A DNA stretch of 64,000 bases from Escherichia phage PECP14, in sequence record OQ870555.1, one strand, 5' to 3'. Positions 2,789 to 9,830 of this stretch are shown here, one piece after another. The position numbers were made by a program, and so were the translations under genes. The notes beneath the pieces are model-generated. The model saw nothing but the letters and a program-made list of their open reading frames with translations. It ran no database searches and had not been told where the DNA came from. The stretch's first letter is position 1, and every line of letters begins with the position of its first letter.

Positions 2789-3790
2789 TTATTCTGTTTC
2801 GGCGCTTTGAGTAAAGGTAGAAATGTCAATACCTTTTACCATTTCATCGATCATTTCAGCAATATTGAAACTCTGTACCATTTCCAACATTGCCGCTTCC
2901 ATTGCCGCGCCTGCTACCGCTTTCGCTTTCGCATTAGTCGGGGCGTACTGGTCAACCGCTACACTCAGCAGGTTAGCGATCACTACACGACCAATCGGCG
3001 TATCAATATAACCTTTAATCATAAACGGCGCTTTTTTCGCCGCTACTTTTGTGATTTGAGTCAGTGCAATTTTACCTGCTTCCAGTTTAGCAGCGTTAAC
3101 AACGGCGGATTTATTAGCGGCAACGATAGAAGATACTTTAGACATAATATTTCCTTTATTTTCAGTAGTTTGCGCATTTGCGCTTGAAGTTTGAGAGTTT
3201 ACAGCCTGTTTTGTTACGTTGTCAAGCGGTAAAAGTGTAAATCCAGCGTTTGCAACGTTTGATTCATTCCCATACTCTAAATAATCGTTAGGGATCAACA
3301 TGTTACCGCTAGCGCGTTCAAAACACAATACGCCAGTTGTTTCGATTGCGTCACTATCAGCACCTTTATAACTGGATGATAATTCACGCCAGATACTATT
3401 TAATAACGATCCGACACTATCAAGTCTGATACTATTTACTTTTGTTGCTGTTACCTGCTCTTTTTCTTGCACGTTATATAATCGCGCAATGTAACCATTA
3501 TGAGACTCACTATAACCAACAATGATAAAATCAATATCAGTTCCCCGACTATTACGGAAAATGTGATAATCACGGTTGAAAATTACTAGCGCCCTTGTCT
3601 GGTCTAGTAATAGCGTGAAATCATCAACTGAATAATGAGTATCATTATTGTCTAAAATTTCATCGTGAATCTTTTCTACAATAGTAGCGGTATGTTGTAC
3701 GCTTGCCGCACTACTACCATCTAGCAGGTTGCGCAAACTACCCTTAATAATAGTGGCGTTTGCTGGTACTGCAATTCTTACAGTAGACAT
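2789..3790 (-). CDS. hypothetical pre-early protein (333 aa)
   Basis: Long ORF with GAGGGAG upstream of the ATG; first gene of the leftward block; no motif recognised. Confidence 0.6.
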   Translation of the reverse strand: MSTVRIAVPANATIIKGSLRNLLDGSSAASVQHTATIVEKIHDEILDNNDTHYSVDDFTLLLDQTRALVIFNRDYHIFRNSRGTDIDFIIVGYSESHNGYIARLYNVQEKEQVTATKVNSIRLDSVGSLLNSIWRELSSSYKGADSDAIETTGVLCFERASGNMLIPNDYLEYGNESNVANAGFTLLPLDNVTKQAVNSQTSSANAQTTENKGNIMSKVSSIVAANKSAVVNAAKLEAGKIALTQITKVAAKKAPFMIKGYIDTPIGRVVIANLLSVAVDQYAPTNAKAKAVAGAAMEAAMLEMVQSFNIAEMIDEMVKGIDISTFTQSAETE

Positions 3791-4039
3791 TTCTTTGTCT
3801 CCCTCGTTAATCGGTGAGTGAATGATATAGATAATTGTTCGCTAGGGGCAAGAAAAAAGAAAAGGTTTTTTATTCCTTGCCTACTGCCTGTTTTTATGAT
3901 AGCCGCGCGTTTTCTATTTCTAGCTCTCTGTAAGCGTACACAAGGCTTTATTATAATAAGGGTAGCAGTGAGAAAACGCCGTGTAGCGCGTTCTAGGCCG
4001 CTTAAATTTGATTGCGGTTGTTACTGCTACCTATTTACC

Positions 4040-4055
4040 CTGTATATTTATACAG
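4040..4055. promoter_or_regulatory. LexA box-like palindrome CTGTATATTTATACAG
   Basis: CTGT-N8-ACAG with AT-only centre; mirror copy of the 430-449 element. Confidence 0.5.
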
Positions 4056-4077
4056 TAGAATAACCTGTATATAAGTC

Positions 4078-4086
4078 TGTGGATAA
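4078..4086 (-). promoter_or_regulatory. DnaA box (TGTGGATAA = TTATCCACA on the minus strand)
   Basis: Exact consensus 9-mer in inverted orientation. Confidence 0.6.
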
Positions 4087-4126
4087 GTCGCCAAAACGTC
4101 GCCTATTGCGTCAAGTTATTTTGTGC

Positions 4127-4135
4127 TGTGGATAA
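4127..4135 (-). promoter_or_regulatory. DnaA box (TGTGGATAA)
   Basis: Exact consensus 9-mer; a fifth 8/9 copy (AGTGGATAA) lies at 4411-4419. Confidence 0.55.
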
Positions 4136-4880
4136 CTTTGTGCATAACCTAAATGATAGTGGTTCTCACTTAGTCGATAGTTTCTTATAGTTATTATTTC
4201 TCTTTAATTTATAAGTATATTATATAATATGAAATAGTTAGTTGGCTAATAGGTTTTTAGAGTATTAATAGTCTGCTAACTGTTTCAGCTGTTACAATCC
4301 ACCAGCGTGATTATCCTCCTAGCGATTGTTAGTATGCTAATGGTCTGATACACGTCCAGACTTATTTGTCAATGAAAAATAACAGCAGAAAATACTTTTT
4401 TGAAAAATCAAGTGGATAACTCATTAAATTTCATTTTTGCTTTTTGTATAAGTTATTAACAGGGTCTAAAACGCTCTGTAAGCGATTCTAAGCGCCTCAA
4501 AGGAAAAGCTAGGCAAGTGCATTGCCTACTAGCCGTTATCGCCACTATGAGGATTTTAGATTTTGTCAAGTAGGGCAAAGCAAATATAAATGAAAAAATT
4601 ACTTGCTAAAATGGTTGTTTTGGTGTTATTCGCGCGCCCATTTCATTAAATTTAGTGCGCCGCTGGACGTTTGCGGGTAGTGGTTTTCTTTACGTTTCTT
4701 TACAAAAATACGCTTGCGCCATTTTCGGGAATAACCTATTATTTATCTCGTAGGACGGCGGGACGGAAACGAAACGCAAGATTACACGGCGGGGAAGTTT
4801 ACCGCCATGCTCTTTAAAAACTAGGGAACATCTTAAAGCCTATCGGCGGTAAACTTATATAATATAAGGAATCGACGATA

Positions 4881-5099
4881 ATGATCAAATCAAAAAACGC
4901 TTTAGTGATTAGTGCGAAACCTGCTAGCGCATTAGATAGCAGAACAAAAAATTTGTTGACAGTAGCGCAACGATCTGTAAAATACAGATTCAAGCAATAC
5001 AAGAAAGGTAAGCAGCAAGGTCTGGAAATGGTGTGGCGTAATATAATGATTGATTTATATAACTCCCATCAAATCGAAAAAAGTTTAAAAAACGCTTGA
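4881..5099 (+). CDS. hypothetical small basic protein (72 aa), doubtful
   Basis: ORF bracketed by a 23-bp inverted repeat; contains an internal TTGACA-N16-TAAAAT promoter-like sequence, so it may be non-coding. Confidence 0.25.
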   Translation: MIKSKNALVISAKPASALDSRTKNLLTVAQRSVKYRFKQYKKGKQQGLEMVWRNIMIDLYNSHQIEKSLKNA

Positions 5100-5263
5100 C
5101 ACGCTAGCCGATAGGTTTTAAGATGTTCCCCGTAGTAACTGCTCTTTAAAAATTTGGATAACGGTAATGTTTAGGCTAACTCCTAGCGGATTATAATCTA
5201 ATAGCGTTTCAAAGTATCGAGGCGCTATTGTGGAATAATCCCCAATAAACCGGAGTATTAAAA

Positions 5264-5515
5264 ATGCAAAACGTTATTACCGCGCCGAAAGTAGGTCAAT
5301 CTGTTTTCATTCCTTTTGTAACTAAAACTGATGAATTAACCGGAAAAGCCGAACGTATCAAAGGTGCGGCGCTTGATCCCTTTGATAAGATTGAAGCGGT
5401 CTATGCGGAAACGGAACGCAGTAACAACGGCAAGCCTATTTATAACGTCCGTGTTAAATCTGGCGACGTTGTAAAGGTCATTCAGAAAGATGATAAATGG
5501 CAAGCTATCGCCTAA
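5264..5515 (+). CDS. hypothetical protein (83 aa)
   Basis: ORF preceded by the conserved initiation region ACCGGAGTATTAAAAATG, which recurs at 6200-6218. Confidence 0.5.
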   Translation: MQNVITAPKVGQSVFIPFVTKTDELTGKAERIKGAALDPFDKIEAVYAETERSNNGKPIYNVRVKSGDVVKVIQKDDKWQAIA

Positions 5516-5740
5516 TAGCTTATTAATAACCCGCGCCTTTAATCGGCGTAAATAAATAAGGCTAGCGCCTCATGTTAGATTTTCGATATATTAACCATGT
5601 AGTGTGAACAATGTTATGGCACACAATTTAAACTTATATGATTAGTGTTACTTTTATATTCCCCTGAAATATGGGGAATATATGGATTAACATTAGTTAA
5701 TCATAATCCCTTAATTAATAATTGAATGGAGTATTAAATT

Positions 5741-6157
5741 ATGTCTAACGTTAAAACCGAAAAAACCGCAAAATTCTCTTGGAACGAAGAAAACACTGAA
5801 AAAGCTGTTTCTATGTATTCTGAAATGGTCGCTAAAAGCGGAATTGAATTTGCTAACAGTGACGGCTTGAAAGAAATCGCCGCCGCCGTTGGTGCTGCTA
5901 GTCCGGTGTCTGTACGTTCTAAATTGACCAGTGCAAAAGCCTACCAGAAAAGCGATAAACCGCGTAAAGTTGGCGGCGGGTCTAGTATCCGTAAAGCTCA
6001 CTATGTGCGCGTCATTGCTAAACATGCCATTGATAGCGGCATTGTAAAAGATGCCGATGATCTGGCAAGTCTGGAAAGTGCAAAACTTGAAACGCTGGAC
6101 GCCGTAGCGCAATTGTTAGGCGTAGCGGAGGAAGTAAAACAGGCCGCAGGTGAATAA
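5741..6157 (+). CDS. hypothetical protein (138 aa)
   Basis: ORF with AATGGAG upstream of the start and a terminator hairpin downstream. Confidence 0.55.
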   Translation: MSNVKTEKTAKFSWNEENTEKAVSMYSEMVAKSGIEFANSDGLKEIAAAVGAASPVSVRSKLTSAKAYQKSDKPRKVGGGSSIRKAHYVRVIAKHAIDSGIVKDADDLASLESAKLETLDAVAQLLGVAEEVKQAAGE

Positions 6158-6167
6158 ATTTTAATTA

Positions 6168-6185
6168 GCGGGGAATAATCCCCGC
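6168..6185 (+). terminator. Hairpin GCGGGGA-ATAA-TCCCCGC after gene 5741-6157
   Basis: Identical hairpin to 2762-2779; followed by TATAATTTCCCTTT. Confidence 0.5.
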
Positions 6186-6215
6186 TATAATTTCCCTTTG
6201 ACCGGAGTTATTAAA

Positions 6216-6443
6216 ATGATCTTCTTTCCTAGTGAAGCGTTTATTTTAGGTTTATTTATAGTTGCCGCTATATTTATATTTAATTACGGCAAATATATAA
6301 TCTCTATTATCGGCATTAATTCAGCTTATGCCGCTGATATGTTTAAACGTCAAGCTAATAAACAAAAATATCTAGCGATTATATTTTTAACGCTGGCTAT
6401 CAGTTGCGGTTTTAGTTCTAGTCTTATGCCAATTCTAGAATAA
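6216..6443 (+). CDS. small membrane protein (about 75 aa, two predicted transmembrane helices)
   Basis: Hydrophobic stretches FILGLFIVAAIFIF and LAIIFLTLAISCGF; start taken at the ATG preceded by ACCGGAGTTATTAAA. Confidence 0.5.
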   Translation: MIFFPSEAFILGLFIVAAIFIFNYGKYIISIIGINSAYAADMFKRQANKQKYLAIIFLTLAISCGFSSSLMPILE

Positions 6444-6551
6444 TATTGCAAATTATAACGCCTTTTAAATTGTCCTCACTTCAGGCAAGGCGTTATATTT
6501 GGCAATATTGCCAGTATTAATATTTATCCCTTTATAGGAGTTGATTTAGTT

Positions 6552-8216
6552 ATGAATATTTCCGCAGAAAAACAAGCTCAAATTCTGAAAATGGCCGCAG
6601 ATTTTAACTTCTACGGTAAGCGTTTACGCGCTACTAAATTGGAAGTTTGCGACGATATTTCAAAAGCTGTTTATGATACGCCGAAACATTCGACCGCAAT
6701 TTGTGACTGGTTAGAAGCAAATAAGCCAGCGAAACCGAAAGCGGCAAAAGCTGAAAAGGCGATTAAAAATGATGATCGCCCCGAAGCGGCGGGAATTGTT
6801 TCTAGTACCGTTGAACAATGGGAAGTTAAATCCGGTCGCCGTTTTATTCTAACGTCGATTCAAAATAATACTTTCCCGCATAAAAACTTTTTAGCAAGTC
6901 TGGAAAAATTCGCTGAATATTGCGGCGCTGAATTGCTGATTAGTAAATTCATTTATAATAAAAATGGATTCCAGAACGGGGAAGGGGCAAACGGTATTAA
7001 ATACGATCCCGCATTTGATAAATATGTTTGTGATAAAAACGTATTTTTAAATAATCGCCGCTTTGCTTTCATGGCTGAAATTAACGTTTTACCAACGGCA
7101 GATTATCCGCTTTCAGGATTCGCAGAAACCGCCACGGCTTTAAATATCGAAGGTCTGGCAATTGGTCACGCTAAAATCACCGCTGAAAGTGTGCCAGCGT
7201 TAAAAGGTGAAGTCGTGCGCCGTATGTATTCAACCGGAACGGCGACACTAAAAAACTATATCCAGCAAAAGGCGGGACAAAAAGCCGAGGCTTTACATAA
7301 TTTCGGCGCTTTGCTGGTAGAGTTTGACGACGACGGAGAATTTTATTGCCGCCAGCTTGAAACAATGGACGAAAGCGGAATGTTCTACGATTTGAACGTG
7401 TGCGCTACCGCTACCGGATGTTATGAAACATCGGGCCATGTTCTAGGCTTGCAATATGGCGATATTCACGCCGAAAAACTAGATGATGATTGCGCCGTCG
7501 CTTCATGGGCTAGTGAAAACAGCTTGCTTGATATTCTTAAACCGAAATATCAATTTATTCATGATGTGCATGATTTTACATCCCGCAATCACCATAACCG
7601 CGCAAGTGGTGTATTCCTTGCTAAACAGTACGCCGCAGGACGTGATAAAGTTATTGATGATTTGATTGATACCGGTCGCGTGTTGGAATCTATGGAGCGT
7701 GATTTCTCTCAAACAATCATTGTGGAATCTAACCATGATTTAGCTCTTTCACGCTGGCTAGATGATCGTAACGCTAACATTAAGGACGATCCCGCAAACG
7801 CGGAACTGTATCACCGTCTAAACGCTGCGATTTACGCCGCTATTGCTGAAAAGGATGATACCTTTAACGTGCTAGATTACGCCTTGCGGAACGTCGCAGG
7901 ATGCGAATTTAACGCCATTTTCTTGACTACTGACCAGTCATTTAAAATCGCTGGCATTGAATGCGGCGTACATGGTCACAACGGCATTAACGGCAGTCGG
8001 GGCAATCCTAAGCAGTTTAAAAAGTTGGGACGCCTTAACACTGGTCATACTCATACGGCTAGCATTTACGGCGGCGTTTATACCGCTGGCGTGGCGGGGT
8101 CGCTTGATATGGGCTACAACGTGGGCGCGTCAAGCTGGACGCAAACGCATTTAATTACCTATGCAAACGGTCAAAGAACATTGATTGACTTTAAGAATGG
8201 TAAATTCTTTGCATAA
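6552..8216 (+). CDS. A1: A1-like pre-early protein, calcineurin-type metallophosphoesterase (554 aa)
   Basis: Phosphoesterase motifs GDIHAE and ESNHDL in the translation; size and position next to A2-like and dmp genes match my recollection of T5 A1 (about 556 aa). Confidence 0.8.
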   Translation: MNISAEKQAQILKMAADFNFYGKRLRATKLEVCDDISKAVYDTPKHSTAICDWLEANKPAKPKAAKAEKAIKNDDRPEAAGIVSSTVEQWEVKSGRRFILTSIQNNTFPHKNFLASLEKFAEYCGAELLISKFIYNKNGFQNGEGANGIKYDPAFDKYVCDKNVFLNNRRFAFMAEINVLPTADYPLSGFAETATALNIEGLAIGHAKITAESVPALKGEVVRRMYSTGTATLKNYIQQKAGQKAEALHNFGALLVEFDDDGEFYCRQLETMDESGMFYDLNVCATATGCYETSGHVLGLQYGDIHAEKLDDDCAVASWASENSLLDILKPKYQFIHDVHDFTSRNHHNRASGVFLAKQYAAGRDKVIDDLIDTGRVLESMERDFSQTIIVESNHDLALSRWLDDRNANIKDDPANAELYHRLNAAIYAAIAEKDDTFNVLDYALRNVAGCEFNAIFLTTDQSFKIAGIECGVHGHNGINGSRGNPKQFKKLGRLNTGHTHTASIYGGVYTAGVAGSLDMGYNVGASSWTQTHLITYANGQRTLIDFKNGKFFA

Positions 8217-9042: not shown

Positions 9043-9777
9043 ATGAATCAAGTCAACATGAATATTACCCGCACTTTCCCGCATATTTCCCGCGTTATGA
9101 TTTGGGATTTAGACGGAACGATTATAAATTCTTTCCATCGTGTAGCGCCTTGCTTTGACGATAACGGGAATTTAGATTTAGTTAAGTATTCCCGCGAAGC
9201 CTGCAAACATGAATTAATTATGCAGGATTCCTTATTACCATTGGTTGAATATATGCGCCAATGTATGAATGATCCCAATACCTTAAACCTTATTTGTACC
9301 GCTCGCTTAATGGGTAAATCTGATTATTATTTCTTGCGTAAACAAAGTCTAAGAGGGCGCGGAAATAGTAATATTCGCGTATTTTCCCGCGATACATTAC
9401 ATAAATACTTTGATGCAAATAAGGTTAGCGAAATATACCACAGTAAAGACGCTGTATATAAATCTTATTACTTTGAACTGTTTAAACAGCTATACCCTAA
9501 CGCTGATTTTACGATGATTGATGATCATAAAGGTGTATTATCGGCGGCGGCAAGTGCTGGATTTAAAACGCTGGACGCTCAAGCCGTTAATGATATCCTA
9601 TCAATCGGGGTAACATTGATCGGTGAAACCTTTATTGATGAATCGTTAGATGATGATAACGATTATCAATTCCTAGCCGAACGTTTAAAAATGTGTTGGG
9701 AAGGTATGACCGAGGAAGAACGCGCGGAATATAGTACCACACCGCAACAATTCATTGATAAATTAAAAGTTGCCTAA
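9043..9777 (+). CDS. dmp: 5'-deoxyribonucleotidase, HAD superfamily (244 aa)
   Basis: HAD motif I (IWDLDGTII) near the N-terminus; length matches my recollection of T5 Dmp. Confidence 0.75.
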   Translation: MNQVNMNITRTFPHISRVMIWDLDGTIINSFHRVAPCFDDNGNLDLVKYSREACKHELIMQDSLLPLVEYMRQCMNDPNTLNLICTARLMGKSDYYFLRKQSLRGRGNSNIRVFSRDTLHKYFDANKVSEIYHSKDAVYKSYYFELFKQLYPNADFTMIDDHKGVLSAAASAGFKTLDAQAVNDILSIGVTLIGETFIDESLDDDNDYQFLAERLKMCWEGMTEEERAEYSTTPQQFIDKLKVA

Positions 9778-9795
9778 CAATTAAAAATAAAATAG

Positions 9796-9830
9796 TCACG
9801 GTGTGTAACGATAACATGCCGTGACTATTA
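9796..9830 (-). terminator. Rho-independent terminator (stem TAGTCACGG / CCGTGACTA, then TTTTATTTTT on minus strand)
   Basis: 9-bp stem plus T-run; closes the leftward small-gene operon and lies just after the dmp stop. Confidence 0.55.

Follow-up and report, generated by a model that had tools for sequence, protein, structure and literature searches.

A T5-type pre-early control region in Escherichia phage PECP14 and the complementarity of a promoter core to an upstream repeat arm

In bacteriophage T5, the divergent control region of the pre-early genes is made up of Repeat Regions 1 and 2, which hold in succession the repeat IRA, the promoter P-D/E20, the gene hdi with the promoter P-H22, the repeats IRA' and IRB, an IRC-spacer-IRD element and the P11 gene block. 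P-D/E20 has been used in classic promoter-strength studies. P-H22 and P-D/E20 are strong promoters that have both been characterised by experiment and lie fully or partly within hdi, and T5 locus fragments carrying the two could not be cloned, which blocked the deletion of hdi and gene 009 in T5 (bioRxiv 10.64898/2026.04.02.716235). P-H22 has been confirmed in vivo by primer extension and, like P11, is pre-early (PMC7472727). The product of T5.008, the host division inhibitor Hdi, inhibits FtsZ ring formation and gives T5 a competitive advantage (PMC10714956). The 25-phage comparison of Davison lists IRA and IRA' without a function and makes no mention of promoters (bioRxiv 10.1101/866236). 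The role of the repeats conserved in first-step-transfer (FST) DNA is part of a 50-year-old question, that of the stop and restart of T5 injection and the subsequent pre-early shut-off. The present analysis concerns positions 4090-5263 of a 64,000-nucleotide (nt) stretch of DNA from Escherichia phage PECP14 (OQ870555.1), the whole of which is referred to as the window; the elements named above for T5 occur here in the same order. A preliminary description had taken this tract to be mostly non-coding and a candidate control region, small-RNA locus or injection-pause element.

Other described systems resemble the tract in part. RNase III acts on helices such as the sites in T7 early mRNA and the long-range stems enclosing 16S and 23S rRNA. 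The PECP14 tract is like these sites in having, as predicted from the sequence, a helix of at least 24 bp that flanks a whole cistron together with a two-segment leader hairpin, both of which covary, and it is unlike the T7 and rRNA sites in that the 3' arm doubles as a promoter core. In T4-type phages, promoter-early stem-loops (PeSL) reportedly flank small open reading frames (ORFs) in hyperplastic regions, as Arbiol et al. are said to have described in 2010. The likeness lies in repeated promoter-plus-structure units between small variable early ORFs, with a cassette content that varies among relatives; whereas the PeSL are direct repeats with local hairpins, the repeat here is inverted, spans the cassette and has a sequence specific to the module. 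The T5 injection stop signal (Repeat Region 3) shares a unit of about 131 bp with the IRC/IRD element, including DnaA boxes, in inverted orientation. However, that signal is found at the boundary of first- and second-step transfer (window positions of about 1-600), where it is accompanied by DRC, DRD and DRE repeats and a major nick, and it is 3.5-5 kb away from the tract.

The assignment of the tract to T5-like DNA is based on its matches and its setting. Positions 3800-5600 match 496 phage records at 70-95% nucleotide identity (megablast), the top matches being the Epseptimavirus phages IrmaTschudi (95.3%) and Stitch (94.8%). In Stitch and Seabear the match is on the minus strand, within the annotated terminal repeat; the window is thus reverse-complemented relative to the usual T5 map, as the gene order confirms. 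The tract lies inside the long terminal repeat, which ends at about 9887, between a plus-strand block with homologs of T5p007 (5264-5515), A2 (5741-6157), A1 (6552-8216) and dmp (9043-9777) and an opposite-facing T5.011-type block on the minus strand (2789-3790, starting at 3790). Comparison with T5 used the annotations in AY587007, AY692264 and AY543070 together with those of Davison (bioRxiv 10.1101/866236). BLAST aligned window positions 5133-4536 with T5 (AY587007) 4680-5238 at 76.6% identity over 602 nt, 4279-4033 with T5 5943-6159 at 71% identity over 250 nt, and 571-1 with T5 9208-9798, the injection-stop region. By this mapping, 4090-5263 is the counterpart of Repeat Regions 1 (4682-5310) and 2 (6022-6209) of T5, and the T5 features IRA, IRA', IRC, IRD, T5P1, T5P2 and T5P4 were all placed on the window. 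The T5 region is split by an inserted gene, the HNH endonuclease-encoding hegG, which the window lacks, so that the two Repeat Regions are contiguous here; most T5-like phages are likewise without a hegG-type insertion (Davison, bioRxiv 10.1101/866236). The window also differs from T5 in that its Hdi is five codons longer and in that it is without about 60 nt of the T5 P-D/E20 leader.

Three T5 promoters have homologs in the window. The top promoter-like match in a scan (11/12) is the plus-strand site TTGACA-N16-TAAAAT at 4956-4983 (hexamers at 4956-4961 and 4978-4983), inside the hdi coding sequence; this site had been noted before and proves to be the homolog of T5 P-H22. The P-D/E20 homolog, which was absent from the preliminary description, was found by the scan and by alignment to the annotated T5 promoter at 5096-5124 on the plus strand (TTGACA 5096-5101, N17, TAAGAT 5119-5124); it overlaps IRA and has an expected start near 5131. 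Hexamers and spacing are the same as in T5 for both promoters. The TGA stop codon of hdi falls inside the -35 element of P-D/E20 (GCT TGA CA), and P-H22 is written in hdi codons. The P11 homolog (TTGCCC, 18-nt spacer, TATCAT; 3822-3851, minus strand), also detected by the scan, aligns to the T5 promoter at 6422-6490 upstream of gene 011. It lies outside 4090-5263 and would drive the minus-strand pre-early block starting at 3790. By homology to T5, the host sigma-70 RNA polymerase would start at the P-H22 and P-D/E20 homologs upon DNA entry, with rightward transcription in the window through T5p007, A2, A1 and dmp, and the P11 homolog would serve the opposite gene block.

The ORF at 4881-5099 on the plus strand, which had been suspected of being non-coding, is a real gene that encodes an Hdi homolog. 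Its product is 68% identical to T5.008/Hdi (E = 9e-33), and a Shine-Dalgarno (SD) sequence, AAGGA, precedes it at 4866-4870. The ORF is kept in 26 of 29 distinct relatives and is open and in frame in 27 of 28, and the ratio of nonsynonymous to synonymous substitution rates (dN/dS) is 0.18-0.36 against other genera, with a median of 0.09 within Tequintavirus. A function in inhibition of FtsZ would follow from homology to the T5 protein. The description of the tract as mostly non-coding thus holds for most of its length and fails for this ORF. Several genome records and one review call the tract untranslated or annotate spurious small ORFs in it, from which hdi is now separated as the one real gene.

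Given a real hdi gene, two strong promoters that have been well studied and a set of conserved, DnaA-box-bearing repeats, the region is ordinary for the T5-like family and has already been described. The view that 4090-5263 is a T5-type pre-early divergent control region, with promoters and hdi working as they do in T5, is assigned a probability of about 0.9. All features of the preliminary description are present, with coordinates shifted by 1-3 nt, and the suggestion of a control region was borne out, since the tract lies between divergent pre-early operons and bears the P-H22 and P-D/E20 homologs. These are textbook strong T5 pre-early promoters and repeats catalogued in T5 genome papers, and the known picture is unchanged. 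The main interest lies in a concrete and cheaply testable feature, the co-varying upstream partner of each pre-early promoter core that closes a cassette.

In PECP14 this feature is the inverted repeat IRA'/IRA, which had been reported as 23 bp and is 24 nt long with 23 of 24 positions complementary. The upstream arm IRA' (4824-4847) ends 19 nt 5' of the hdi ribosome-binding site, and the downstream arm IRA (5107-5130) covers P-D/E20 from the spacer through the -10 element and the discriminator, as far as about -1; the arms map to IRA' and IRA of T5. No further copies with up to 3 mismatches occur in the 64 kb, nor were any found in 100 shuffles. Among inverted repeats in the window whose arms are at least 20 nt long, at least 90% complementary and widely spaced (more than 100 nt), IRA'/IRA stands alone. 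Comparison with homologous regions revealed compensatory changes that keep the arms complementary. Among 16 distinct sequences, 382 of 384 cells pair on plus-strand RNA, versus 365 on the minus strand; three pairs have changed on both sides, the observed covariation score was reached by no shuffle, and in one phage both arms have gained 1 nt in a coordinated insertion. With more loci included, the mismatches are all transitions, with G.U at 7 positions (many common) and A.C at 3 (all rare). In the predicted fold of a transcript of 4748-5165 the IRA'/IRA helix is present in both the minimum-free-energy and the centroid structures (z = -4.8). A separate 12-bp helix, 4795-4806/4845-4856, was not regarded as conserved because three of its pairs are broken in loci L010 and L031.

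The repeat arms are accompanied by the direct repeat GCTCTTTAAAAA, of which the window has two exact copies and no others. Copy 1 (4809-4820, plus strand) is directly 5' of IRA' and is found at this position in 47 of 48 loci, and copy 2 (5141-5152, plus strand) lies within the first 10-20 nt of the P-D/E20 transcript. The copy that follows IRA is direct in the window, whereas Tequintavirus phages have an inverted AAGAGCG there. The fold predicted for the P-D/E20 leader pairs UGCUCU of the direct-repeat motif (5140-5145) with the T5p007 SD sequence GGAGUA (5252-5257); the motif GCUCUUUAA resembles an anti-Shine-Dalgarno sequence, and copy 1 could likewise pair with UAAGGA of hdi.

A helix between IRA' and IRA would form only in transcripts that contain both arms. 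Because P-H22 fires inside hdi, hdi would have to be read from a promoter further upstream. The best candidate, judged from conservation in the alignment, is the plus-strand site TTGCGC-N17-TATTAT at 4714-4742 (hexamers at 4714-4719 and 4737-4742), whose hexamers are invariant and whose spacer is variable in 29 sequences. It has two copies of the repeat TTTCTTTACG on its 5' side and the conserved TTATCTCGTAGG on its 3' side, and the motif downstream of it is present in 43 of 50 loci. The layout recurs in KPN4 (TTGCGG-N16-TATTAT) and in L042, a distant, unclassified phage from IMG/VR (TTGCAG-N17-TAATAT). Transcripts from such a promoter would contain both IRA' and IRA, which could then form a 24-bp long-range helix bracketing the hdi cistron.

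The same design was found across about six lineages of the Demerecviridae, four with named genera: Epseptimavirus, Tequintavirus, Sugarlandvirus (KPN4), Serratia phage Slocum, Hongcheonvirus (DU_PP_V) and L042. The spacer, -10 element and discriminator (about -24 to +1/+6) of each promoter or promoter-like site that closes an inverted-repeat-bracketed cassette upstream of T5p007 are complementary to an upstream sequence of 24-38 nt. This upstream arm is found 140-430 nt away, just 5' of the bracketed small-ORF cassette's ribosome-binding site; P-H22, inside hdi, has no such complementary partner. In KPN4 the arms are about 29 nt long and 406 nt apart (promoter TTGACA-N17-TATTAT), and in Slocum they are 28 nt long and 96% complementary (promoter TTGACA-N17-TAAGAT). 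L042 has two modules and DU_PP_V three in tandem. Arm sequences vary from genus to genus and from module to module within a genome, and complementarity is maintained by compensatory changes, including the coordinated 1-nt insertion. In most phages the bracketed cassette holds hdi; L015 and L035 have a further ORF in addition to hdi, L039 has a different ORF and KPN4 has two ORFs. The motif GCTCTTTAA(A/C)AA stands 5' of the upstream arm in 6 of 7 modules and 3' of most downstream arms in these genera, Tequintavirus being a further exception; owing to this recurrence the direct repeat noted in the preliminary description can be taken as conserved and not as a chance match. Vibrio Demerecviridae have the T5p007 homolog in a different context, and their repeats upstream of A2 are arranged differently. 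The pairing design is undescribed in the literature examined.

Tentatively, and at less than even odds, IRA'/IRA is best explained as a long-range RNA helix in read-through transcripts that serves processing, insulation or stability. For the family-wide design as well, a helix that forms only in read-through transcripts is the leading explanation, although still a tentative one. Such a helix could be a processing or insulating signal of the RNase III type through which read-through mRNAs would come to share their 5' region with mRNAs initiated at the promoter. At 24 bp the IRA'/IRA helix is long enough for an RNase III site (about 20 bp or more in the transcript), and no paper linking T5 pre-early RNA to RNase III was found in the literature searched. 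Ranked below the helix is the possibility that the arms are a functionless repeat kept by gene conversion, which is doubtful. A pair of DNA operators for a phage or host protein is also ranked below it and is unlikely. An operator pair might, for example, mediate A1-dependent pre-early shut-off by looping out P-H22 and occluding P-D/E20, a scheme that is consistent with the position of IRA over the spacer and -10 element of P-D/E20 and with reports that A1 dampens pre-early promoters and that A2 is a DNA-binding dimer (Davison, bioRxiv 10.1101/866236; bioRxiv 10.64898/2026.04.02.716235). However, the three tandem modules of DU_PP_V have three unrelated arm sequences, L042 has two, and complementarity is their sole shared property. 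Since the arm sequences are unrelated between modules, one sequence-specific protein cannot account for all of them, and with several unrelated arm pairs in one genome it is complementarity itself, not a protein-binding motif, that seems to be selected. The arm-to-arm distances of 283 bp in the window and 268 bp in T5 do not preserve helical phase, and the mismatches, all transitions and mostly G.U on the plus strand, also argue against an operator. Two further roles for the arms were rejected: IRA' is not a strong minus-strand promoter (it has a -10 element, but its best -35 element matches at 2/6 and it has no TG extension), and IRA/IRA' is not an invertible promoter switch, as the orientation is the same at every locus examined.

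At its left edge the tract meets the IRC-spacer-IRD element of T5 Repeat Region 2 (4040-4171), described by Davison (bioRxiv 10.1101/866236), which consists of IRD (4040-4080), a 52-nt spacer (4081-4132) and IRC (4133-4171). Within it, two pairs of DnaA-type boxes, TGTATATAA-GTC-TGTGGATAA at 4066-4086 and TGTGGATAA-CTT-TGTGCATAA at 4127-4147, show the 3-bp separation of the T5 element (Davison, bioRxiv 10.1101/866236), and the spacer has the T5-type length of about 52 bp; the palindrome CTGTATATTTATACAG lies at 4039-4054. The boxes include a 9/9 DnaA box, TTATCCACA, at 4127-4135, the consensus-class TTATGCACA at 4139-4147 and another 9/9 box at 4078-4086. An inverted twin beside the injection-stop region, IRD'-spacer-IRC' (316-447), maps to T5 IRC'/IRD', is 86% identical to 4040-4171 by alignment column, and has boxes at 340-348, 401-409 and 413-421. 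The preliminary description had recorded an 8/9 DnaA box. Such boxes exist at 4411-4419 (TTATCCACT) and 5153-5161 (TTATCCAAA), but the stronger ones at 4127-4135 and 4139-4147, inside the interval, and at 4078-4086, outside it, had been missed.

The region, or its left part, might be regarded as an injection-pause or membrane-anchoring element in which DnaA boxes hold the FST DNA through membrane-associated DnaA; that 4040-4171 and its twin would bind membrane-associated DnaA is Davison's hypothesis (bioRxiv 10.1101/866236). The four perfect TTATCCACA boxes of the 64 kb are all within the two elements of about 130 bp (340-421 and 4078-4147), the pairing of boxes and their 3-bp spacing are conserved in relatives, and the element is 5.7-5.8 kb from the end of the repeat at about 9887; Davison cites a second FST band near 5.8 kb. 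Nevertheless, this role is doubtful. In T5 the stop is defined by a shear point about 9.6 kb from the left end, which corresponds to window positions of about 1-600, while the tract corresponds to T5 4680-6159, away from the first/second-step boundary at about 7.9% of the genome. Moreover, Type 4 T5-like phages are without IRC/IRD here (Davison, bioRxiv 10.1101/866236), most of 4090-5263 lies outside the 4040-4171 element, and the BF23 genome paper (PMC10644984) calls experimental studies lacking for comparable repeats and DnaA boxes at the border of FST and second-step-transfer DNA. An injection-pause role therefore applies at most to the left edge, the twin of the injection-stop unit. The clustered boxes beside the AT-rich repeat tract at 4176-4260 recall oriC, but a DnaA-dependent replication origin is highly improbable, for T5 origins have been mapped close to the middle of the genome, first-step DNA does not express replication genes (Davison, bioRxiv 10.1101/866236), and a second copy of the element lies next to the injection-stop region. 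An independent small RNA, or a small hydrophobic peptide encoded by the mini-ORF at 4590-4649 (plus strand, 19 codons and a stop), is quite unlikely as the product of the tract. In its favour are the conserved non-coding block at 4563-4880, a GC hairpin at 4788-4806 followed by GCUCUUUAAAAA that could end an RNA of about 65 nt started near 4749, and a mini-ORF start kept in 23 of 26 relatives before a hydrophobic stretch with flanking basic residues. But the U-tract after the hairpin is interrupted, Rfam gave no match at E<=1 for 3600-5700 on both strands with permissive filters, and the conserved RNA structures sit inside mRNAs, which leaves the idea of a small-RNA locus unsupported. As for the peptide, the dN/dS of the mini-ORF (0.85) is like that of the other two frames (0.71 and 0.99), there is no SD sequence, the start is lost in T5, L011 and L023 (AGG in T5, CTG in two phages other than T5), L007 and L018 are frameshifted, and the nearest promoter-like -10 element overlaps the ATG. 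The mini-ORF, once compared to a signal peptide, thus lacks protein-level constraint and is probably untranslated and not a gene. Nucleotide conservation across this stretch is strong (GAAAAAATTACTTGC, TTCGCGCGCC).

Several points weigh against the account of the tract preferred here, that of a working T5-type control region with a long-range RNA helix. Any role of IRA/IRA', IRB, the DnaA-box element, the TAGTNNGCTAA motifs described below and the conserved block 4563-4640 is hypothetical, and the statement of the BF23 genome paper (PMC10644984) cited above applies to this account as well. Promoter activity in PECP14 is deduced from the T5 data. The candidate hdi promoter at 4714-4742 is a poor match to the consensus (8/12) and has no T5 annotation. 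The G.U bias on the plus strand is suggestive and, when counted by position (7 vs 3), not significant.

The leader of T5p007 contains a second conserved RNA structure, a stem-loop at 5188-5241 (plus strand) with an outer helix GGATT/AATCC and an inner helix AATAGCG/CGCTATT, which ends 10 nt before the SD sequence GGAG (5252-5255). Of the 18 pairs given by RNAalifold, 6 show compensatory changes; one U.G pair is invariant and would be mismatched on the opposite strand. The stem-loop appears in both the minimum-free-energy and the centroid fold. KPN4, DU_PP_V and Slocum also have a hairpin at this position, with sequences unrelated to it. Between the P-D/E20 start and the hairpin, the T5p007 leader of Tequintavirus (L009-L041) has about 60 extra conserved GC-rich nt, GACGGTCGG...CCCGCCCCCTAACTGGGATATAGCGGCC..., which are absent from the window lineage (at about 5165) and may be a further structured element.

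The other promoter-like site of the preliminary description, TTGTCA-N16-TATAAA on the plus strand (4563-4590; hexamers at 4563-4568 and 4585-4590), is present with a conserved -35 element. Its -10 element is variable and fails the rule of the scan because position 6 is not T, and the site has no counterpart among the annotated T5 promoters. As for T5P3, the hegG promoter, the -35 side alone aligns (window 4333-4338), and the -10 element is absent in the window. Among other small ORFs, including ones annotated in relatives, the bas28_0195-like ORF at 4676-4852, those at 4655-4753 and 4671-4817, and the minus-strand ORF at 4814-5002 were discarded, as none is open in relatives. Genera are set apart by a 13-nt indel at 4762-4778, and the ATGA overlap of T5.009 and hdi is lost in the window. 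The extra ORF of the Tequintavirus-like L015 and L035 encodes 52 amino acids (MQTIYNDHPATHD...) and lies between IRA' and hdi, and the ORF that replaces hdi in L039 encodes 56; the IRA'/IRA arms are retained in all three.

Between the DnaA-box element and the promoters is an AT-rich conserved non-coding tract (4176-4530) with a TTTCTTATAGTTATTATT-type unit at 4180-4200. Copies like TTTCTTATAGTTATTATT follow GATAGTTTCTTATAG as a variable tandem repeat, with one copy in the window and about 30-60 extra nt in relatives. The motif TAGTNNGCTAA, a TTAG/CTAA half-palindrome, occurs three times in direct orientation within 100 bp (4239-4249, 4269-4279 and 4330-4340); there are four copies in the 64 kb versus 0.8 expected, and the first two of the three are exact in relatives and the third nearly so. 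The conserved DnaA-like box TTATCCACT at 4411-4419 is accompanied in Tequintavirus relatives by a second, inverted copy about 20 nt upstream, and a palindromic pair of DnaA-like half-sites, TGTATAAGTTATTAACA, lies at 4444-4460. Positions of about 4279-4507 are an insertion hot spot, with 400-700 extra bp in relatives (L009, L015, L017, L018, L020, L024, L026, L029-L031, L033 and L036), hegG being the T5 case, and as a result the distance from the P11 block to T5p007 varies from 1356 to 2069 bp. A metagenome scan added only 14 loci to those compared. ARAGORN found no tRNA or tmRNA genes in the whole window, and the tRNA cluster typical of T5-like phages therefore lies outside it. Downstream of the tract, a hairpin with 23-nt arms at 6442-6509, between a small ORF (6198-6443) and A1, looks like an intrinsic terminator or attenuator. 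It was excluded from the promoter-core repeats because its loop is just 8 nt in relatives and the element is terminator-like. Compensatory changes preserve it out to DU_PP_V, L043 and a Vibrio phage; in the window lineage, 16 nt have been inserted into the loop.

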